In this document: piece by piece, positions 7,331 to 60,337 of the stretch
Numbering within the stretch: the stretch's first letter is position 1
Layout of the letters: the number at the start of each line of letters is the position of its first letter
DNA from: Acidimicrobiales bacterium
GTDB lineage: Bacteria > Actinomycetota > Acidimicrobiia > Acidimicrobiales > SZUA-35
Reading direction: 5' to 3'
Length of the DNA stretch: 64,000 nt
NCBI GenBank assembly: GCA_020630195.1
Contig: JAHDBV010000004.1
Coordinates: 6,990-70,989 of the forward strand
The notes under the pieces: model-generated
The model's database searches: none
Seen by the model: the letters and a program-made list of their open reading frames with translations, nothing else
What the model was told of the DNA's origin: nothing
Program-made: the position numbers and the translations under genes

Positions 7331-8284
7331 TCAGTACCCCTTCGACCGGTCGATCGCGGTGCCCGGGGTCCGACCGGCCTCGAGGTCGGCCAGGTTCGCG
7401 ACCATGATCTCGGTGGCGCGGGCCACGAAGTCGACGGTGAATCCGGCCACGTGGGGGGTCACGAGCAGACCGGGCACGTTCCACCAGCGGCTGTCGTCCG
7501 GCAACGGTTCGGTCTCGAACACGTCGATGGCGGCCGCCCGGAGCTGGCCCGCCTCGAGCGCATCGGCGACGGCGTCGAGCGACACGATGCCGCCACGGCT
7601 GACGTCGACGAGGAGGGCGCCGCGACGGAGACGACCGATCTCGGCGGCGCCGATGAGTCCCTTCGTCTCCTCGGTGAGCGGCACCACCACCACCACGGCG
7701 TCGGCGCCGTCGAGCACCTCACCGGCACGATCGATCGGCACCACCGTGTCGAACCCGTCGACCGGCCGACCCGAACGGTTGACCCCGTCGACCCGCATGC
7801 CGATCCCCCGGGCGAGCTCCGCGATGTCGGTGCCGATGGCACCGGCACCGACGACGACGAGGCGTTTGCCGTGCAGCACGACGGGAGCGAACAGGCGCCA
7901 TTCCCGTTGGTCCTGGCGTCGCACCATGCCGGGGATGTCACGGGACAACCCGAGCAGCATCGCCAGCACGAACTCCTGCATCTGGGGCCGGTGGATGTTC
8001 GGGGCGTTGCAGACGTGCACGGCATCGGGCAGGTCGGGTGCGGGCAGGATCGAATCGACCCCGGCGGCACCCACCTGGAGCATCCGGAGCTTCGTGGCCG
8101 CGGCCCAGTGATCCCGGGGTGCCCGGAACGCGTAGAGCACCTCGATGTCGCCCATGGCCGCGATGAGCTGGTCGGGCTCGTCGTGGACGACCAGCTCGAG
8201 GTCGGGCCGGGCGGCCGACAGCGGCTCGGTCACCATGGAGGAGAAGTTCGGCAGGTAGACGTCCACCCGCTGCACGGGGGCCAT
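7331..8284 (-). CDS. D-isomer-specific 2-hydroxyacid dehydrogenase family, NAD-binding
   Basis: Rossmann motif VVVGAGAIGTDIAELARGIGMRV, catalytic-region pattern (LLVDVSRGGIV...D; TPHVAG). The start ATG at 8284 (or GTG at 8287) overlaps the stop of the upstream gene. Confidence 0.85.
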   Translation of the reverse strand: MAPVQRVDVYLPNFSSMVTEPLSAARPDLELVVHDEPDQLIAAMGDIEVLYAFRAPRDHWAAATKLRMLQVGAAGVDSILPAPDLPDAVHVCNAPNIHRPQMQEFVLAMLLGLSRDIPGMVRRQDQREWRLFAPVVLHGKRLVVVGAGAIGTDIAELARGIGMRVDGVNRSGRPVDGFDTVVPIDRAGEVLDGADAVVVVVPLTEETKGLIGAAEIGRLRRGALLVDVSRGGIVSLDAVADALEAGQLRAAAIDVFETEPLPDDSRWWNVPGLLVTPHVAGFTVDFVARATEIMVANLADLEAGRTPGTAIDRSKGY

Positions 8285-51868: not shown

Positions 51869-52996
51869 CTACTCCCAGAGCGAGACGACGAGCCCGCGGT
51901 CGGCGGGGATGTCCCCCTGCACGACCGACACCCAGGCCCCGGCGACACTCTCGGCCGACACGGCGTGGTCGACCGCGATCCAGTCGGCCGCGGCCTCGAT
52001 GAAGGCGGCCCAGGAGGTGGCGAGGCGGGCCTCGTACTCCTCGCGGCCCCACTCTCCGATGCGGTTGACGATGTGGTCGGGGGCGAAGAAGAACTCGCGG
52101 TCGGGGCCGGGCATCTCGGCCTGCCCACCGAGGGCTTCCCAGTGGGTGCCGCCCACGATGACCGAGCGCAGGAGGTGGGTGCCGGCAGCGGTGTGGGCCT
52201 CGGCGACCACCTCGCTGTTGCCGGCGAAGTCGATGAGGGCCGACGGGCCGACGGGTGACCAGTCGGCGATGGCGTCGTAGCCGATCACCTGGTCGTACAC
52301 GCCGGTGCTCTCCACCTGCTCGATCCGGCTCGGTGAGGTGAACCCGACGACCCGGGCCCGGCCGCTCGCGTGCAGCAGGTGGGCGAGTGCGAGGGCCGTC
52401 TTCGACGAGGCGCTCGTGAGGGCGACCTCGGCGAGCTCGTCGCCGGTGGCGAGGGCGGCGTCGATGAGGAACGAGGTGGTGAACAGTGGCCGGAACAACA
52501 TCTGGTCGTCCTCGGTGCCGATCTCGAAGCCCGGGTCGGCGGCGACGCGGGTGTAGCCGTTGTAGACCGGCGGCAGGGCGGCGCGGTGCTCGGCGGCGTC
52601 GACGAACGACGTCGGGCCGACCTTGGCCGGAGTGACCGTGAGGTGGGTCGACATCGGGAAGTAGCCGTAGATGCGTTCGCCGACGGCGAGTTCGTCGACG
52701 GTCGACTCGCTGATGTCGGCGAAGCCCCACACCGGGACGCGGCCCCAGCCCTCGGGGGCGGGGAAGAACTTCCAGTAGCCCATCATCTCGCCGAAGGCGG
52801 CGTAGGTGACGTTGTTGGCCGTGAGGCTGAAGGTGTCGATGCGCAGCCGCACCTCACCATCGGCGAGGGGAGCGAGCTCCTCGGTGACGATGTCGGTCCG
52901 GGCGATGTCGCCGGGGGCGACCAGGACGTGTTCGTTGCGGGCTTCGTGAGCGGCGTCGTCGGCGATGGCCATGCCGGCGACGCTAGCGACGAACAT
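51869..52996 (-). CDS. DUF2855 family protein (MDR-like fold, function unknown)
   Basis: The pattern ...FSLTANNVTYAAFGEMMGYWKFFP...WGRVPVWGFADI..S....L.VGERIYGYFPM..HL is as in DUF2855 proteins. The start may be the ATG at 52972. Confidence 0.65.
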   Translation of the reverse strand: MFVASVAGMAIADDAAHEARNEHVLVAPGDIARTDIVTEELAPLADGEVRLRIDTFSLTANNVTYAAFGEMMGYWKFFPAPEGWGRVPVWGFADISESTVDELAVGERIYGYFPMSTHLTVTPAKVGPTSFVDAAEHRAALPPVYNGYTRVAADPGFEIGTEDDQMLFRPLFTTSFLIDAALATGDELAEVALTSASSKTALALAHLLHASGRARVVGFTSPSRIEQVESTGVYDQVIGYDAIADWSPVGPSALIDFAGNSEVVAEAHTAAGTHLLRSVIVGGTHWEALGGQAEMPGPDREFFFAPDHIVNRIGEWGREEYEARLATSWAAFIEAAADWIAVDHAVSAESVAGAWVSVVQGDIPADRGLVVSLWE

Positions 52997-53110
52997 GCGA
53001 CGGATCGAACGGCGGCATGCGGTGACCTCCGGCAGCCGCGCTGGTGAGGACGAGGAGCAGTCGCACGTGTCCGACCATCGGATGAATCCGATCGGGTGGC
53101 TGCACCGGAT

Positions 53111-54034
53111 TCACCCTGCGGCCTCCGCATCCGATGCGTTCTCGGGACGAACGACGAGCACGGGGCACGGCGATTCACGCACAACTCGCATCGCGACACT
53201 CCCGAAGAGGAGGCGAGCGATCGACGGTCGGCGGTGACTCGCGACGATCACGGCGGCGATGGCCGGATCGGCGGCTCGCCGGACGATCGCATCGGCGGGA
53301 TCCCGGCCTTCCTCGATGACCAGCTTCGCCAGCCGACCGGAGTCGTCGTGCATGGCCTGCGCGGTTCGCGTGTGGTGCCTGAGACGCTCCCGGGTCGAGC
53401 GCCAGGTGGCGTGCTCGACGATCCGGTCCGCGGTGCTGCCGGTCCGGACGTGGACGAGGTCGACGTCGAGGCCATAGGCGTGCGACCAGCCTGTCGCGAG
53501 GTGTGCGATCCGATCATTGAGGTGTGCGTCGTCCGCGCCGACGATCAGGCGCCCGGCACCAGGTGTGGCGGCGGTCGTCCGCTGGCAACCCTGGCCCACG
53601 ATCAGAACCGGACCGCCGGTGAGCTGGAGGACGTTCTCGGCGAATGATCCGCGGAGCTCGCCGGTGCGGGCGTGTCCGGGGTCGGTGCACACGACGAGGG
53701 TGTTGTCCTCGCTTGTCTGCTCGCGGTGCATCATCTCGGCGATCCACGACGAGGCGGACCTCGACGTCGTCTCGACGATGCGTTGGTCGGCCGTCACGTC
53801 CGCCTCGAGTAGCTGACGGTCGATGATGCGGGTGATCTCGCGCTCCGACCCCGGATTCACGGCCGAGAAGGTCACGAGCTCCGCATCCGAGGCCTTCGCG
53901 AGGGCGGCGGCGGTCGGGATCGCCGCTGCGCCGCGGTCGCTCCCATCGAGCGCCACGACGATCCGTGTGTAAGGCGGAGCGGCGACCGGGTGCCGCTGCA
54001 TCGGATGGTCCGGTTTCTCGGTATGACCCTGCAT
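53111..54034 (-). CDS. Tandem universal stress protein (two USP domains)
   Basis: ATG at 54034 or 54001. The repeats are RIVVALDGSDRGAAAIPTA...LVVCTD...GPVLIVG and LIVGADDAHLNDRIAHLA...VIVASHRRPSIARLLFGSVAMRVVRESPCPVLVV. Confidence 0.85.
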   Translation of the reverse strand: MQGHTEKPDHPMQRHPVAAPPYTRIVVALDGSDRGAAAIPTAAALAKASDAELVTFSAVNPGSEREITRIIDRQLLEADVTADQRIVETTSRSASSWIAEMMHREQTSEDNTLVVCTDPGHARTGELRGSFAENVLQLTGGPVLIVGQGCQRTTAATPGAGRLIVGADDAHLNDRIAHLATGWSHAYGLDVDLVHVRTGSTADRIVEHATWRSTRERLRHHTRTAQAMHDDSGRLAKLVIEEGRDPADAIVRRAADPAIAAVIVASHRRPSIARLLFGSVAMRVVRESPCPVLVVRPENASDAEAAG

Positions 54035-54070
54035 GGACGTGAGATTGGACGGCGTCTGTTCTCGCGAACA

Positions 54071-54084
54071 GGGCCTGAAGTCCC
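54071..54084. promoter_or_regulatory. DosR-box-like element GGGCCTGAAGTCCC upstream of the tandem USP gene
   Basis: It matches 12 of 14 positions of the core of the M. tuberculosis DosR consensus (GGGACTWWAGTCCC). It lies 37-50 nt upstream of the ATG at 54034 on the minus strand. Confidence 0.4.
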
Positions 54085-54164
54085 GGAGGTCGTCGGCACC
54101 CCATCCGGGTCCGTTGGCTCCGCGAGCTCGCGGGGGACTCGCCGAGGGATCGGTGGTGTCGGGT

Positions 54165-54782
54165 GCGTCGTATGTGTGGAGTGGGTCGACATCGGAAGGG
54201 CGCGGGTTGGAACGTCCGGATGGTGGACGGTTCGCGGCGACGGTGTTCGACAGTGCGGCGGTCGAGATCGATGTGACGTTCACTGAGGACTGGTCGGGTC
54301 CGGTGCACGTGTATTCGTTGGATTGGGATTGGGGTGGTCGTGCTCAGTCGGTGTCGGTGGGTGATGGTGCTGCGGTTGGGGTGAGCTCGTTCGGTGGTGG
54401 CGTGTGGACCTCGGCGATGGTTGATGCCGTTGCGGGTGAGACGGTGCGGGTGCGTGTGGAGCGAACCGCCGGCGCGAACGCGGTGGTGTCGGCGGTGTTG
54501 CTTGGTGATGCGGTGCCGTCGGGTGGTGCGGTGGCGTTGCCGCCGGTCGAGTCGGGTTCGGGTGATTGGTCGGGTCTGGTTGGTGCTGATGGGGCGTTCG
54601 TGGCCGGCCGGTTGCCGTCGCCGACGTTGCCGGGTGGTGTGGCGTCGTTCTCTGTGGCTGGTGGTGCGGCCTATACGTGGAACTGGGACTCGTCGGAAGA
54701 TCGGGCTGTCGAGGATCCGGGTCGGGACGGGCGCATCGGCGCCGCCTGGTACGCGGCTGGTGAGGTCGCGATCGATGCCCGA
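54165..54782 (+). pseudogene. Internal fragment of a larger secreted-protein gene (one full and one truncated repeat of a W/D-rich beta domain), no start or signal peptide
   Basis: The repeat is ASYVWSGSTSEGRGLE...AATVFDSAAVEIDVTF...VHVYSLDWDWGGRAQSVSVGD...VRVRVERTAGANAVVSAVLLGD. A second copy starts GAAYTWNWDSSEDRAVED...AAWYAAGEVAIDA and then decays. The strand is strongly GT-rich with T-ending codons, unlike the rest of the window. No plausible start codon precedes it. Confidence 0.5.
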
Positions 54783-55126
54783 TGTATTGGTCGATTGCGG
54801 TGGCTCGGCGGAGGAAGTCCGTGCGATCGCTGCAGCGGTCGCTGGGTTCTGCGCCGCTTCGCCTTGGTGGCCGTTGGGAGAGTGACGGGTGTGAGCCTTC
54901 CGTGGTGGTGGACGGCGCCGGCAGAACAGCCGCCCGGTTCGAGATGGGTGTCATCGGGGCTCACTACGATCGACGCCGTCGAACGTCAACGTCGCGATCG
55001 CCGTGGACGATGGTCGTGACATCGGTTGGGATGCCTCGAGCGGCTCGCAAACGAGCTTCTACATCGTGACCGTCAAGCCGGGTGAAGGCGTGTGGACTGC
55101 TCATCCGGGGCTGCGAGGGTGGGCGG

Positions 55127-55435
55127 ATGATTGCACTGTCGATACGTCGGAGCCTCTTCGATCCGGGCAGCGAGGTCGATCTCGTCACCGGGATCACGAT
55201 TCCCGACTGGGATGACCTCGAGGGTGTGAGCCTTCTCCGCTCTGTGGACTACTACGAAGACTCAGCCTTCAACTACCACCTCCTTGAGAAGCTCCTCGAG
55301 GAAGTGGATGGCTGGTTGGCCTATGAACGAGGTCGCTCGGACTCGGAAGACCGTTGTGGGACGATCGCTGCGGTGCGAGAGGCCCTGGCCGGGGCCTACA
55401 GCCGGCGACAGTACGCGGTCTTCTTGTCGCTCTAG
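55127..55435 (+). CDS. Hypothetical small protein (102 aa)
   Basis: ATG at 55127 is preceded by GGGTGGGCGG. The sequence is protein-like and non-repetitive (MIALSIRRSLFDPGSEVDLVTGITIPDWDDLEGVSLLRSVDYYEDSAFNYHLLEKLLEEVDGWLAYE...). GC is lower than its surroundings. Confidence 0.5.
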   Translation: MIALSIRRSLFDPGSEVDLVTGITIPDWDDLEGVSLLRSVDYYEDSAFNYHLLEKLLEEVDGWLAYERGRSDSEDRCGTIAAVREALAGAYSRRQYAVFLSL

Positions 55436-55619
55436 CTCGGGAAGACCCCGGATCGTCGTCCTCCCCGCCCGAGATCCTGTCGGCGCCCTCTCGGAAGATC
55501 CTCCACTGCGAGGTGACCGAGCACCGCGACCCCGCACGTCGGCGATGATCAGAGACGGGCGCCCATCGGGGTGTGACAGTGGTGCATGCCTAGCGCCATT
55601 TGGCGGGTAGGAGGCTCTA

Positions 55620-56162
55620 GTGGGAGAGAGTGCAGTGCTGGGTTCAGCCGACGAGGCCGGCAAGAAGGAGTACGTCGGGTATGTCTGGGTCGATGATGAG
55701 CCGGGGATCAGGTTGAGTGTCTGGGCCGAGTCAGCTACCGAGGCCGGTGAGCTCATTGACGCCGAGTTTGGCGAAGGCAGCGTTCATTCCGTCTGGAACG
55801 AAGAAGACGCGTCCCGGCCGCGATCAGCTGAGGAAGTCAGTGAGCCTTCCGGCGCTGAGCACGTAGGGAGCGAAGATGTCGGGGAGGTGGAGCCGCCAGA
55901 GGCGCGCCCGCATCGCAGACAGCCAGGCATAACTACGACGTGGACCATGAGTCTTCGTGTGTGGTGTCCTCGTTGCGGCCAGGGCTGGGTGCAGCTGTAC
56001 GACGACGGTTCGCGTCGTCCCTTCTGGGTTTGCGACGAGTGCGAAGGTGTCTGGGTGCGGGACGAGATCGACCCCTCGCCCGACGATGATCTCGAGACAT
56101 TCCTCCGCCGTGAGCGAGGCGGTGGTGGGTGGTCGTCGCTGCGTCTCTGGGATGCCGGATGA
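55620..56162 (+). CDS. Hypothetical protein with C-terminal CxxC...CxxC zinc-ribbon
   Basis: The GTG at 55620 lies 5 nt after a strong AGGAGG. The N-terminal module is KEYVGYVWVDDEPGIRLSVWAES.... The C-terminal module is VWCPRCGQGWVQLYDDGSRRPFWVCDECEGVWV. No family recognised. Confidence 0.5.
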   Translation: MGESAVLGSADEAGKKEYVGYVWVDDEPGIRLSVWAESATEAGELIDAEFGEGSVHSVWNEEDASRPRSAEEVSEPSGAEHVGSEDVGEVEPPEARPHRRQPGITTTWTMSLRVWCPRCGQGWVQLYDDGSRRPFWVCDECEGVWVRDEIDPSPDDDLETFLRRERGGGGWSSLRLWDAG

Positions 56163-56214
56163 CAGAGTCAGGTCGTCCGGCGCTCGTTTCCGCTGAGCGC
56201 CCCTCCCCGTCGCC

Positions 56215-56913
56215 TCAGCCGAATTTGGTGCGGGGGCGGTCCTGCTGGACTCCGTCGATGCGGACATCGACCTTCTCGTCGAAGAACGCCACCCGGCCGC
56301 CGACGGCCATCGACTCCGGCAGTGGGGTGTCGTATCCCCACACGATGTCGGTGTGCTCCGTCCCGTCGACCGTCACCGACCAGTACCGGGCCACCCCCTT
56401 GTACGGGCAGGCCGATTCGGTGTCGGTGGGGGTGAGCAGATCGAGGCGGACGTCGGTCTTGGGGAGATACCAGCGGGTCGGCAGGCCGGTCTCGTAGAGG
56501 GCGATCGCGTTCGTCGAGTCGGCCACGACCTCCCCGTCGATCTCGATCTCCACCCGACGCGACGAGGCCAGAGCGTCGACTCGCACGTAGGGGCTGCGGG
56601 CGTGCACGAAGATCTCGACCTCCTCCTCGAACCAGTGATCCGCGGCGTCGAACCGGATCGACAGATGGCCGTCCAGCTCGCCGTCGCGGCGGGTGACGGC
56701 TCCGGTGGCCACCCGACCGTCGACCACGAGATCGTCGCCACGGATCAGCGCGGTGCGGACGTCGGCCTCGGGGAAGGCGTAGGCGGGGTAGTAGGGCACG
56801 TCCCAGACGAGCCGGGCGTCGGTGGTGTCGACCACGGTCTCACCGGCGAACACGACACGGACGCGCTTGCGGGTCGGCTCGTGGTGACCGACGGCGACGG
56901 GGGAGGGCTGCAT
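56215..56913 (-). CDS. DUF427 domain protein (two DUF427 repeats)
   Basis: ATG at 56913. The repeats are VRVVFAGETVVDTTDARLVWD.PYYPAYAFP..DV and VEIEIDGEVVADSTNAIALYETGLPTRWYLP..DV......T....CPYKG.ARYWSV. Confidence 0.8.
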   Translation of the reverse strand: MQPSPVAVGHHEPTRKRVRVVFAGETVVDTTDARLVWDVPYYPAYAFPEADVRTALIRGDDLVVDGRVATGAVTRRDGELDGHLSIRFDAADHWFEEEVEIFVHARSPYVRVDALASSRRVEIEIDGEVVADSTNAIALYETGLPTRWYLPKTDVRLDLLTPTDTESACPYKGVARYWSVTVDGTEHTDIVWGYDTPLPESMAVGGRVAFFDEKVDVRIDGVQQDRPRTKFG

Positions 56914-56993
56914 GAGGGCGACAACCACGGCCGTTCGACGGACCTTCCCGGCCGTTCGACGGGCCGGGCACCCCACACGTTCTCCCCGAGGGT

Positions 56994-58034
56994 GTGGCCG
57001 GCGTGGCGGCGGGCCATCCTGAGGGGGTGAGCTTGCCGTGGCGCCTTCGCCCCGCCACACCGGCCGATGAACCACTCCTCCGGGAACTGCTCGGGGTGTC
57101 GCTGTTCGTCCCGGCCGGTGATCCCGCGGTGCCCGCCGAGATGATCGGCCAGCCCGCCTACGCCCGCTACGTCTCCGACTTCGGGCGCCGGGCCGGCGAC
57201 ATGGGGCTCGTCGCCGAGCTCGATGGTGAACCCATCGGTGGTGCTTGGGTCCGGTTGCTCGGCCCCGACGACCGCGGCTTCGGCTGGGTCGATGACGTCG
57301 TGCCCGAACTCACCCTCGCCGTCGACCCCCGCCATCGTGGCGTCGGGCTCGGGACCGCCATGCTGCGCCGCCTGTTGTCGAAGGTCGGCACCGTCTCGTT
57401 GTCGGTGCACCACGACAACCCGGCACGTGCGCTCTACCAGCGGCTCGGGTTCATCGACGTCGCCCGGCACCGCGAATCGAGCGTGATGGAACGCATCGGC
57501 GACCCCGTCACCACCGCGCTGATCATGGAGGTCCCGGCCGTCCCCGACGAGATCGAGCGCATCCGGGTCGAACACGACCCGCTCGCCCTCGCCGGCATCC
57601 CGCCGCACCTCACCGTGTTGTTCCCGTTCCGCTCCGCCGAGTCGATCGACGACGACCTCCGTCGCGCACTCGCCGACGAGATCGGCCGAACCGAGACGAT
57701 CACCGTGGAACTCGCCCGCGTCGGCCGGTTCCCCGAGTTCGTGTGGCTCGGCCCCGAAGACCCGGCGCCCATCGCAGACCTGACCCGGCGCCTGTCGATC
57801 CGCTTCCCCGACTGTGTGCCCTACGACGGGCGCCACCAGACCGTGATCCCCCACCTCACCGTCGCCCACGGCTCGGTGGCGCACATGGACGCGGTCGAAG
57901 CCGAGCTGCGTGAGGTCATGGACCGCGACGGACCGATCCGGTTCGAGGCGCGCTACGTCTCGTTGTTCGTGCAGGACTCGACGCGACGGTGGTCGAGCAA
58001 CGAGGCGTTCCGCCTCAGTTCCGACCTGCGCTGA
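56994..58034 (+). CDS. Fusion of GNAT acetyltransferase and 2H phosphoesterase (LigT / 2'-5' RNA ligase-like) domains
   Basis: The GNAT core is LAVDPRHRGVGLGTAMLRRLL...NPARALYQRLGF. The C-terminal half has the two HxT motifs of the 2H superfamily (PPHLTVLFPF and IPHLTVAHG). The start is uncertain (GTG at 57027 is possible). Confidence 0.7.
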   Translation: MAGVAAGHPEGVSLPWRLRPATPADEPLLRELLGVSLFVPAGDPAVPAEMIGQPAYARYVSDFGRRAGDMGLVAELDGEPIGGAWVRLLGPDDRGFGWVDDVVPELTLAVDPRHRGVGLGTAMLRRLLSKVGTVSLSVHHDNPARALYQRLGFIDVARHRESSVMERIGDPVTTALIMEVPAVPDEIERIRVEHDPLALAGIPPHLTVLFPFRSAESIDDDLRRALADEIGRTETITVELARVGRFPEFVWLGPEDPAPIADLTRRLSIRFPDCVPYDGRHQTVIPHLTVAHGSVAHMDAVEAELREVMDRDGPIRFEARYVSLFVQDSTRRWSSNEAFRLSSDLR

Positions 58035-58086: not shown

Positions 58087-59247
58087 TCAGCGGTGGGCCG
58101 GCGCCATGTAGAACCAGACGGGGAACGGCCCCTCCTGATCCTTGATCGCCGCACGGGCCGCCATCACGGTCTTGCCGGCCTCGGTCTGTTCGTGGAACCA
58201 CGCCTCCATCGCCCGACCGGCGGGCGGCGGCCCATCGGAGAGCTCGAGTGCGGCCTCTTCGTAGTAGGTCCGGATGTCGTGACACACCGCGATGGTGTTG
58301 CCGCCCGGGATGGTCTCGTCGTCCTTCCAGTGGGCGCCGTTGGCGATCCGGTCGAACATGGCGAGTGCGTCGGCCACGCCGTCGGCACCGTCGAGGATGC
58401 GACCCACGTCGGTGTGGCCACGGGCCTCGACCGCCCGCTCCCAGGCCTTGCGGATGCCTCGGGCCTCGTCGACGGCCGGGGGTGCCTCGGCGTCGAACCG
58501 GGGCGGGAGCTGGCACGACATGCCCTCTTCGATGCCCTCGATCACCTCGGGGTGGTCGGCGAGCACGGGTCCGTCCGACTCGAGGAGGGCGAACGCCCGG
58601 CGGAGCACGTCGTGCTGGAACTCGGCGTCACCGGGATGGCCGAGCGGGCGGCCGAGCGGGAACTCGCAGTAGAGCACCCGGGGAGCGGCCATACGTTCGG
58701 CGACACTCCGGCTGGAGGCGAGCACCACCGTGGCGATGCCGGCGGCTTCGAGGACGTGGGCGAGCACACACACGGTGCGCGTGCAGAGGGGTCAAACCGG
58801 GGTGAGGATCGCGACGTCGACCCCCTCGGCCTTCAACGCCGCTGCGGCGGCGGGGCCGGTGTCGTGACGGATCGTCGCCACGTCGTCGGGCTGGTTGCCG
58901 GCGAAGCTGAGATGGTGGGGGGCGACGGCGCCGATGGTGCCATCGGCGGCGAGCTCGTCGAGCCGGTCGATCGGGTAGACGACGTTGAGGTCGAGCTTCA
59001 CGCCGGAGCGGTCGAAGTTCGGGCTCCAGTGCCCGAGCACCAGGTTGCGCTCCGCCGCATCGAGCACCCGGTACGAGGTGTCGCCGGCCGTGAACTCGTC
59101 GCGGCCCGCCGGATGCAGGGCGGCGGAGGTCACGATGGCGACCGTCGCCTCGGCCAGGGGCACGGGGTCGACCCAGGCGGGGTCGTCGAAGGTGGGGACG
59201 GCGAGGCCGTCCTGCATGTTCCGCATCGCGATGTCACCGGCGCTCAT
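58087..59247 (-). CDS. Glycine/sarcosine/betaine/D-proline reductase selenoprotein B (GrdB) family protein with in-frame TGA (putative selenocysteine) at 58792-58794
   Basis: ORFs 58792..59346 and 58087..58773 are in the same frame and separated only by TGA. Read through, they give ...LKAEGVDVAILTPV-U-PLCTRTVCVLAHVLEAAGIATVV. By recollection, this is collinear with the GrdB Sec site (...VILTST-U-GTCTRC...). A hairpin follows the TGA. The start is uncertain (ATGs at 59247, 59226, 59217). Confidence 0.65.
58764..58784 (-). promoter_or_regulatory. Candidate SECIS-like hairpin downstream of the in-frame UGA
   Basis: The mRNA sequence GCACGCGC-ACCGU-GUGUGUGC gives an 8-bp stem (5 GC, 1 AU, 2 GU) and a 5-nt loop containing GU. 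It starts 8 nt after the UGA. Confidence 0.4.
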
Positions 59248-59305
59248 GGCATCGACACTGGCACAACCGGTGGGCGACTCGAAAGCCGGCGAGACCTCGG
59301 GCGGC

Positions 59306-60337
59306 TCAGGCCCGGGTGCGGTTGTCGCCCCAATGGTCCATCGCACCGGGACGGGCGAAGCGGGCGGGGCGATCCTCCGGGCCGAGCACCGAGGTCGCCA
59401 GCCACAGCCGCTTCAGGTAGCGGACCCGACCGGTGGCCGGATCGTCGACGTAGCTCCGCCGCCCGTGCACCACGTGGAAGTTGTTGATGAACTGGATGTC
59501 GCCGGGGCCGAGCGTCATCTCGAGCTGGAGGTCGGCGTCGGCGATCAGCTCGTCGAGGGCCGCCATCGCCGCCACCTGACGGTCGGTCAGGCGGGGAGCA
59601 TCCGCGTGCCGCTGCGAGGCACGGATGAACGTCGGGATGTACCGCACGAACAGGCGACCCCGGTGCTCGGTGAACGCCGGAACCAGATACCAGGGCTTCT
59701 GCCCGGGAGCCTGCTCACCCCGGAAGTCGTAGGGCAGTGGTTCGTGGAGGGCGGCCACGAGATCCGGATCCCGTTCGACGAGGCGGTTGTGGGCCGTCAC
59801 CACGTTGGCGATCCGACTCTCGCCACCGGACACCCCGTCGACCAGGCACATCAGGCCGACCAGGTCGCTGCCGTCGGAGTGGAACGGCAACGCGACCCCA
59901 CCCATCTCGTTGCCCCGAGCGGTCGGGTCGTCGAGGGCCTTGCCCTGGTCGCGCACCGTGCCGAGCACGTGGCCCTTGGCGTTCTGGGGCCACGGCTCAC
60001 CGAGGTGCCGGCCGATGGTCCAGTAGGCAGCGGTGGCGAGCTCCTCGCCGAGCTCGTCGACGGGCAGCCCGGCGATCCGGGCGAACCCCCGTCCTTCCAT
60101 CAGTTCGCGCTCGATCGTGGCCAGCTCGGGCCCGAGGCGGGGGAGCGGCACGTCATCGGCGGTGATGTCGAGCAGATCGTCGTGGCGGTCGAGCGCCGCA
60201 CGCACGCCACCGATCAGCTCCTCGAGATGCCCGTCGTCGAGCTGGAGCGTCCACCGCTCGGGATCGGCGACCTCGTCGGCGGTCCAGGCGACCTCGGGTT
60301 CGAGCGGTCGGATCTCTGCAGCGGTGATCGTGGTCAT
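59306..60337 (-). CDS. TauD/TfdA-family Fe(II)/2-oxoglutarate-dependent dioxygenase
   Basis: ATG at 60337 is preceded by AGGGGAA. The HxD facial triad (LPFHSDGSD) and distal His/Arg (FHVVHGRRSY) are present. 343 aa. Confidence 0.8.
   Translation of the reverse strand: MTTITAAEIRPLEPEVAWTADEVADPERWTLQLDDGHLEELIGGVRAALDRHDDLLDITADDVPLPRLGPELATIERELMEGRGFARIAGLPVDELGEELATAAYWTIGRHLGEPWPQNAKGHVLGTVRDQGKALDDPTARGNEMGGVALPFHSDGSDLVGLMCLVDGVSGGESRIANVVTAHNRLVERDPDLVAALHEPLPYDFRGEQAPGQKPWYLVPAFTEHRGRLFVRYIPTFIRASQRHADAPRLTDRQVAAMAALDELIADADLQLEMTLGPGDIQFINNFHVVHGRRSYVDDPATGRVRYLKRLWLATSVLGPEDRPARFARPGAMDHWGDNRTRA

Follow-up and report, generated by a model that had tools for sequence, protein, structure and literature searches.

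An in-frame UGA very probably encodes selenocysteine in a PrdB-like protein of Acidimicrobiales

Does an in-frame TGA that divides a gene of an Acidimicrobiales bacterium end one protein, or does it encode an amino acid within it? The gene lies on the minus strand of a 64,000-nucleotide stretch of contig JAHDBV010000004.1, hereafter the window, where the list of open reading frames (ORFs) gives two minus-strand ORFs in a single frame, 58792..59346 and 58087..58773. Reading the frame through from 59346 to 58087 shows that the only stop between them is the TGA at 58794..58792, which confirms the proposal of an earlier note on this DNA that one gene has been split in two. The listed downstream ORF opens at GTG 58773 because the ORF lister requires a start codon; the frame itself is open directly from the TGA onwards. 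The read-through peptide is ...AILTPV-[TGA]-PLCTRTVCVLAHVLEAAGIATVVLASS..., and the GC contents at third codon positions (GC3) of the two pieces, 0.89 and 0.90, are of the coding type, like those of real genes in this window of ~70% GC. The best start is ATG 59247, from which the protein opens MSAGDIAMRNMQ... and reaches 386 residues, or about 41 kDa, with an N-terminus that agrees with the starts of uninterrupted homologues. Taken with the comparative data below, this layout leads us to conclude that the UGA very probably encodes selenocysteine (Sec) in one 386-residue protein resembling PrdB, the selenoprotein subunit of clostridial D-proline reductase. The parts of the gene are as follows.

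58087..59247, minus strand: complete recoded coding sequence of the predicted PrdB-like selenoprotein, with start ATG 59247..59245, 386 codons and stop TGA 58089..58087.
58792..58794, minus strand: in-frame UGA predicted to be read as Sec, residue 152, at the first position of a U-x-x-C motif, as judged from its conservation and from the Sec/Cys column.
58783..58785, minus strand: TGC codon of Cys155, the partner Cys of U-x-x-C, which is Cys in 80/80 aligned sequences and lines up with the U-G-T-C Cys of PrdB.

Other same-frame ORF pairs split by TGA in the window (at 7331, 30204 and 37382) were considered and set aside as ordinary adjacent genes with their own starts.

The TGA is a fixed feature of this gene across species. 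Scanning GTDB species-representative genomes with tblastn yielded 80 orthologous loci from 80 different metagenome-assembled genomes (MAGs), nearly all labelled Acidimicrobiales, Ilumatobacteraceae, Iamiaceae or unclassified Actinomycetota, with one Chloroflexi; several carry the label Ilumatobacter. These loci match the window protein straight across the stop, from residues 1-5 to residues 385-386, at 63-85% amino-acid identity. A TGA stands at the same codon in all 80 (79 identified by pattern and one, L068, by direct translation); neither TAA, TAG nor any sense codon ever replaces it, and no second in-frame stop occurs in any aligned column. Median identity to the window protein is 67.5% before the TGA and 67.7% after it, and the ratio of nonsynonymous to synonymous substitution rates (dN/dS), 0.34 before and 0.29 after, indicates purifying selection on both halves. 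Judged from these alignments, neither a nonsense mutation nor an error of sequencing can give rise to such conservation, and nor can a downstream piece that the cell could do without. Among 5.8 billion proteins searched, the matches were of two kinds: many fragments of 225-232 residues with 66-80% identity, from Acidimicrobiales MAGs, mostly unnamed or called 'hypothetical protein' and starting just past the TGA; and uninterrupted proteins of ~380-420 residues with 46-54% identity. Only the C-terminal fragment of the window gene itself is present as a database entry (P0001). The dozens of fragments that begin just past the TGA bear out the expectation that automated annotation would split the gene.

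The uninterrupted homologues show which residue takes the place of the TGA. In an alignment of 19 such proteins the column is occupied by Cys in 12, Gly in four, Ala in two and Ser in one, and real TGC or TGT codons were checked at this position in the homologous loci L083, L084 and L086. Homologues with Gly, Ala or Ser at the active-site column (alignment A1 column 187; L081:4557-5705 and L082:5297-6463) keep the second Cys, and the Gly is encoded by a real GGG; these may be inactive or catalytically different. The column also coincides with a known Sec codon. RefSeq-annotated prdB genes of Peptoclostridium acidaminophilum (WP_148296006.1) and Terrisporobacter, found by tblastn of plasmid records, are ~34% identical to the window protein over residues 8-224, in one piece across the Sec, and MAFFT aligns window codon 152 with the in-frame TGA of both, at Sec151. 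The flanks in this alignment are GVDAAVFTAG-U-GTCHRS in PrdB and GVDVAILTPV-U-PLCTRT in the window. The TGA therefore does fall at the Sec position, as had been proposed, on Sec151 of PrdB and on Cys in 12/19 uninterrupted homologues, and the motif is U-P-L-C as claimed, a U/C-x-x-C aligned with that of PrdB.

The family label needs more adjustment. With Cys placed at the TGA for profile searches, the protein passes Pfam GRDB (PF07355) with a score of 31.3 against a gathering score of 22, over residues 9-149 and profile positions 200-345 of 347; the match stops at query residue 149, three residues short of Sec152. The best NCBIfam model is PrdB (TIGR04483), with 140.8 bits over residues 9-222. 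The GrdB-type models score lower and below their cutoffs (TIGR01918, 46.5 vs 65.45; TIGR01917, 36.9 vs 602), as do GrdF (56.4 vs 800) and GrdH (49.6 vs 775), and in no case does an NCBIfam score for this subfamily come up to the curated cutoff. The assignment to a GrdB family thus stands as far as the Pfam GRDB domain goes, but the nearest family is PrdB, with GrdB at only 36.9 bits.

If the UGA is decoded as Sec, a selenocysteine insertion sequence (SECIS) would be expected in the mRNA just downstream, and a conserved hairpin is present there. From an alignment of the 66 nt that surround the TGA in every sequence, 79 of them distinct, we obtained with RNAalifold a consensus in which columns 18-23 pair with 29-34 and columns 14-15 with 37-38. 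Counted from the U of UGA, the conserved helix joins nt 15-20 to nt 26-31 around a 5-nt loop, C-G-U-G-N. In the window the element comprises the following.

58760..58784, minus strand: candidate SECIS-type hairpin from the RNAalifold consensus, whose lower 2 bp pair 58784-58783 with 58761-58760.
58764..58780, minus strand: upper stem and loop of the hairpin, 17 nt, with 5' arm GCGCAC (58780..58775), loop CGUGU (58774..58770) and 3' arm GUGUGC (58769..58764).

The spacer between the UGA and this 17-nt helix-loop is 11 nt (58791..58781), and the pattern as a whole is UGA, 11 nt, GCG[C/U]AC-CGUGN-GU[G/A][U/C]GC. Standard base pairs occupy all 474 cells for the six upper pairs (100%), with a compensatory change from C-G to U-A at one pair in 25 sequences and a change from G-U to G-C at another in 29, and the observed pairing and covariation score was reached by 0/500 shuffles. 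The Arg codon CGC always occurs with GTG or GCG at codon 161, and CGT always with ACG, a rule that all 80 sequences obey; when these codons are left out in building a neighbour-joining tree, this paired state is seen to have switched about five times along it. Synonymous-codon entropy is the lowest in the gene at codons 156-162 (0.21 bits, against a mean of 1.2 and a standard deviation of such codon windows of 0.28), and the codon choice at the hairpin is fixed: Thr as ACG or ACC at two positions, Val as GTG and Ser as the rare AGT. As a non-Sec control, five of five examined homologues with a sense codon (two GGG-Gly and three TGC/TGT-Cys) break two or three of the six conserved pairs.

The geometry matches that of a characterized element. 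The minimal SECIS of E. coli fdhF is a 17-nt stem-loop that spans nt 15-31, leaves 11 nt between itself and the UGA and has G and U in its apical loop (PMC8659212). The window hairpin has the same length, the same nt 15-31 position and the same 11-nt spacing; it differs in that its stem is a perfect 6 bp that lacks the bulged U17 and its 5-nt loop, CGUGN, has the G-U earlier by one position. In Rfam, no match reached the gathering threshold anywhere in the window, and near the site matches are at chance level only, such as tRNA-Sec at 14.9 bits vs 47.

A SECIS-like hairpin after the UGA had already been suggested, in the form GCACGCGC-ACCGU-GUGUGUGC. Its coordinates, 58784..58764, are right, although it begins 7 nt rather than 8 nt after the UGA; what changes is the register, the conserved pairing being shifted by 4 nt. 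In the earlier register (nt 11-18 with 24-31) only 80.4% of cells are paired, there is no covariation or other compensatory change, and the pairs are broken in 25-70 of the 79 distinct sequences, so that we reject it as the conserved element. Both registers use the same 3' arm. The motif GCACGCGCAC (58784..58764 vs 58780..58764) is one in which the 3' arm can pair in two registers, both in the window and in other sequences of the CGC/GTG type, and an alternative fold is possible there. The comparative evidence favours the shifted register.

The machinery for Sec insertion adjoins one orthologue. At locus L080 (82-5839), which belongs to an Iamiaceae MAG (CAZAVX010000034.1) and alone among the 80 loci has an adjoining sel cluster, the genes are arranged as follows.

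L080 4188-4283, beside the orthologue: tRNA-SeC gene, anticodon tca.
L080 4160..3132, divergent from the orthologue: selD, score 307 bits against an NCBIfam cutoff of 125.
L080 3135..1846, divergent from the orthologue: selA, score 386 against a cutoff of 268.
L080 1839..82, divergent from the orthologue: selB, score 260 against a cutoff of 242.
L080 4694-5839, plus strand: PrdB-like orthologue, with the sel cluster directly upstream.

The protein genes were found with E. coli SelA, SelB and SelD probes, and the L080 matches were re-tested with NCBIfam equivalog models before use. Annotated SelA homologues are plentiful in Acidimicrobiales MAGs, and in Actinomarinales, another order of the same class, selABCD has been described as universal (bioRxiv 10.64898/2026.04.03.716425).

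The predicted protein has two domains, only one of which is shared with PrdB.

58513..59223, minus strand: PrdB/GrdB-homologous domain, residues ~9-245, holding U152-x-x-C155, defined by TIGR04483 (9-222), Pfam GRDB (9-149) and colinearity with PrdB.
58090..58512, minus strand: C-terminal domain, residues ~246-386, largely helical, specific to this family, lacking in PrdB and predicted with a local distance difference test score (pLDDT) of 83-98.

Since PrdB ends opposite residue ~245, the window protein has ~140 additional C-terminal residues, for which there is no Pfam match. At E<=0.001 this domain matches only 174 representative clusters out of 1.84 billion, and where the architecture is recognisable these are full-length members (~380-420 residues) or post-TGA pieces (~225-235 residues), the remainder being shorter fragments. 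One protein of 1019 residues with the C-terminal domain (P0271) was considered as a fusion and rejected; Pfam recognises no domain in it, and its ORF has probably been drawn too long. The AlphaFold model of the whole protein has a pLDDT of 92.1 and a predicted template modelling score (pTM) of 0.91, and no solved structure resembles it, by sequence or by Foldseek. In the model, U152 lies in the loop between the strand 145-149 and the helix 154-168, and C155 lies in the first helical turn. The end of a loop at the start of a helix is the usual site of a redox-active C/U-x-x-C pair.

Several observations weigh against decoding of this UGA as Sec or against the hairpin that would direct it. Neither a sel gene nor a tRNA-Sec was found in the 64-kb window or in 79 of the 80 orthologous loci; in the window, tRNA genes number zero, as do matches to SelA, SelB or SelD. 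The presence of Gly, Ala or Ser in some uninterrupted homologues means that the Sec/Cys residue is dispensable in part of the family. As to the hairpin, the minimum-energy fold of the window sequence is the earlier register extended to 9 bp (-13.6 kcal/mol), and the conserved register, at -9.2 kcal/mol, is less stable there than the earlier 8-bp register, at -12.5 kcal/mol. The single-sequence z is -1.93, and 9/200 shuffles fold equally well. A double compensatory change occurs at one base pair only, 4/6 upper-stem pairs being invariant, and because the stem overlaps the highly conserved peptide CTRTV, part of the nucleotide conservation reflects constraint on the protein. The bulged U of the E. 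coli fdhF SECIS is also missing. We regard the window hairpin alone as weak evidence and the comparative data as decisive for the TGA.

How else might the TGA be explained? A lone in-frame stop in MAG-derived sequence is a common artefact, and nothing but the C-terminal fragment of this gene is on record in databases, as would suit a pseudogene or a sequencing or assembly error; the TGA would then be either a nonsense mutation of recent date or a wrongly called TGC/TGT, and the full-length protein would not exist. Such an origin is effectively refuted because the TGA is conserved in 80/80 independent assemblies of different species, with both halves under purifying selection and free of other stops. 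It is also highly improbable that the gene is genuinely split, with termination at the UGA and restart at GTG 58773 giving polypeptides of 151 and 228 residues that assemble. That in-frame GTG, 18 nt after the TGA, is invariant and is used by gene callers, but its invariance is explained by its position in the hairpin loop. A split would part U/C152 and C155 from the helix that they cap and lose the six residues P153-T158; moreover, all 80 species have TGA at this point and none has TAA or TAG, and both the uninterrupted homologues and true PrdB are single chains through the split point. A Shine-Dalgarno-like sequence was not seen, although no search aimed at one was made. Read-through without selenium, by near-cognate insertion of Trp or Cys or under a reassigned code, deserves very little credence. 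In the window gene the UGA is followed by C, and UGA-C is a weak termination context; the Sec machinery, too, was seen beside the orthologue L080 and not within the window. However, TGA terminates 38/42 high-GC3 stop-to-stop ORF segments in the window and is therefore not reassigned here, a conserved covarying hairpin at a SelB-type distance would be superfluous for read-through without selenium, and a sel gene cluster adjoins an orthologue.

Granted that the UGA encodes Sec, the protein could still be an ordinary PrdB subunit of D-proline reductase whose PrdA is encoded elsewhere in the genome. PrdB is the best NCBIfam match, the Joint Genome Institute (JGI) name of homologues is 'D-proline reductase (dithiol) PrdB', and the window has genes for an amino-acid racemase and for amino-acid exporters no more than 4 kb away. 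The window protein and PrdB, the 26-kDa selenoprotein subunit of the clostridial enzyme, are alike in their Sec codons, in U-x-x-C and in the flanks GVD..(L/F)T..U..C.R. Nevertheless, we consider this identity unlikely. The score of 140.8 bits is far under the equivalog cutoff of 300, and the ~140-residue C-terminal domain is extra. No PrdA or CBO2463-domain homologue was found in the window and the 80 loci (best E = 0.3 with Terrisporobacter PrdA in tblastn), whereas in the true system, as in Terrisporobacter, prdA lies directly upstream of prdB. The neighbours vary and are mostly of acyl-CoA or sulfatase type, and the host belongs to Acidimicrobiales rather than to the amino-acid-fermenting Firmicutes in which PrdB is found. 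The likeness to GrdB, GrdF and GrdH, the selenoprotein B of glycine, sarcosine and betaine reductase, extends to the Pfam GRDB domain and U-x-x-C, but the match is much weaker than that to PrdB, the ~200-residue N-terminal half of GrdB is missing, and no grdA, grdE, grdC or grdD lies near the window gene. By its sequence, then, the protein is PrdB-like and not a canonical PrdB.

The best-supported description of the product is accordingly a putative PrdB-like selenol/thiol redox protein that would act without a canonical PrdA partner. Its synthesis can be outlined by applying the textbook bacterial scheme to the window gene as far as Sec insertion. With a ribosome at the UGA (58794..58792), the mRNA would form the 6-bp stem with its 5-nt CGUGN loop 11 nt downstream, and this hairpin would recruit the Sec-specific elongation factor SelB carrying Sec-tRNA(Sec), so that selenocysteine would be inserted in place of termination. 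The product would contain a U152-P-L-C155 centre homologous to the Sec-x-x-Cys of PrdB and GrdB. By analogy with those proteins, the selenolate may be the attacking or redox-active group, which Cys155 would resolve to a selenenyl-sulfide that a cellular dithiol would re-reduce. We infer Sec insertion, SelB binding and the chemistry alike from these known systems. That the protein is a self-contained, PrdA-independent selenoenzyme, in which the U-x-x-C domain and the unique helical domain together catalyse, in Acidimicrobiales, a reductive or redox reaction that has yet to be described, and which is no subunit of a proline or glycine reductase, is a proposal that we hold to be about evenly poised between right and wrong.

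The genomic neighbourhood has no conserved operon partner, the top neighbour family, acyl-CoA synthetase, being present in 20/80 loci. Recurrent neighbours are acyl-CoA synthetase, enoyl-CoA hydratase, family III CoA-transferase, short-chain dehydrogenase, sulfatase and a luciferase-like oxidoreductase. An AMP-binding acyl-CoA synthetase adjoins the PrdB-like gene in L035, L081, L082 and L084 as well as in about 20/80 loci, and is often accompanied by enoyl-CoA hydratase or family III CoA-transferase. Because genes for acyl-CoA synthetase, enoyl-CoA hydratase, CoA-transferase and sulfatase recur nearby, the substrate of such a self-contained selenoenzyme might be a carboxylate or an acyl-CoA-type compound. 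Immediately downstream of a Cys-type homologue (P0003), L083:7236-7628 encodes a glycine-cleavage H protein; this is a single case, in which the H protein is a lipoyl carrier and hence a possible dithiol donor.

Around the window gene itself, the neighbours include LysE-type and EamA-type exporters, an amino-acid racemase and an F420-dependent luciferase-like oxidoreductase. On the same strand, a gene for a TauD-family Fe(II)/2-oxoglutarate dioxygenase (59306-~60250, minus strand) ends 58 nt upstream of the selenoprotein start; it has a weak likeness to hydroxylases of trimethyl-ammonium compounds and of arginine, and is found in four loci including the window. Convergent with the selenoprotein gene, 56916-58034 (plus strand) is one ORF that combines a GNAT acetyltransferase domain (residues ~86-180) with a 2'-5' RNA ligase/LigT-type phosphoesterase domain (residues 208-355), and no NCBIfam model matches it. 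An ORF at 56215-57075 (minus strand) contains two DUF427 stretches (Pfam NTP_transf_9, E = 6.6e-40). The GC content of 52000-58000 is 0.675, against about 0.70-0.72 elsewhere in the window, and its GC skew is 0.09-0.16, against about 0.03; this stretch, which follows the selenoprotein gene on its downstream side, could be distinct in composition.

Selenoproteins of this general kind have been catalogued before. The 'Proline reductase PrdB' UxxC family ranked third in abundance among the selenoprotein families of the Sargasso Sea data of 2005, with 42 genes (PMC1088965); in the GOS data of 2008 there were 235 PrdB selenoprotein genes, more than the Cys forms (PMC2398784); and the family is listed in current reviews (PMC13188914). 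This marine-metagenome PrdB family (pfam07355) and the window protein have in common the Pfam family, the U-x-x-C motif, a prevalence of Sec over Cys and aquatic, non-clostridial hosts, and the two may belong to the same two-domain subfamily, a likeness drawn from Pfam family and motif. Because the PrdB UxxC family is already on record, the window gene adds a new member, one that annotation has got wrong, to selenoproteins of a known family. What is refined relative to the earlier note is that the protein is PrdB-like rather than GrdB and that the hairpin register is shifted.

For annotation, at least dozens of Acidimicrobiales genomes list only the 225-232-residue piece after the TGA, and joining the two parts restores a 386-residue selenoprotein. 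As an actinobacterial SECIS, the hairpin offers a clean example with comparative support, and it shares the geometry of the E. coli minimal element. Acidimicrobiales are a common group in aquatic and soil metagenomes, and the gene flags these lineages as users of selenocysteine, which matters for estimating how much selenium aquatic and soil communities require. To selenoprotein specialists the identification itself is unsurprising; the point of interest is the function of a PrdA-less, two-domain subfamily, an orphan family that is abundant in the environment and has the Sec-x-x-Cys centre of PrdB without its pyruvoyl partner and with an extra domain.

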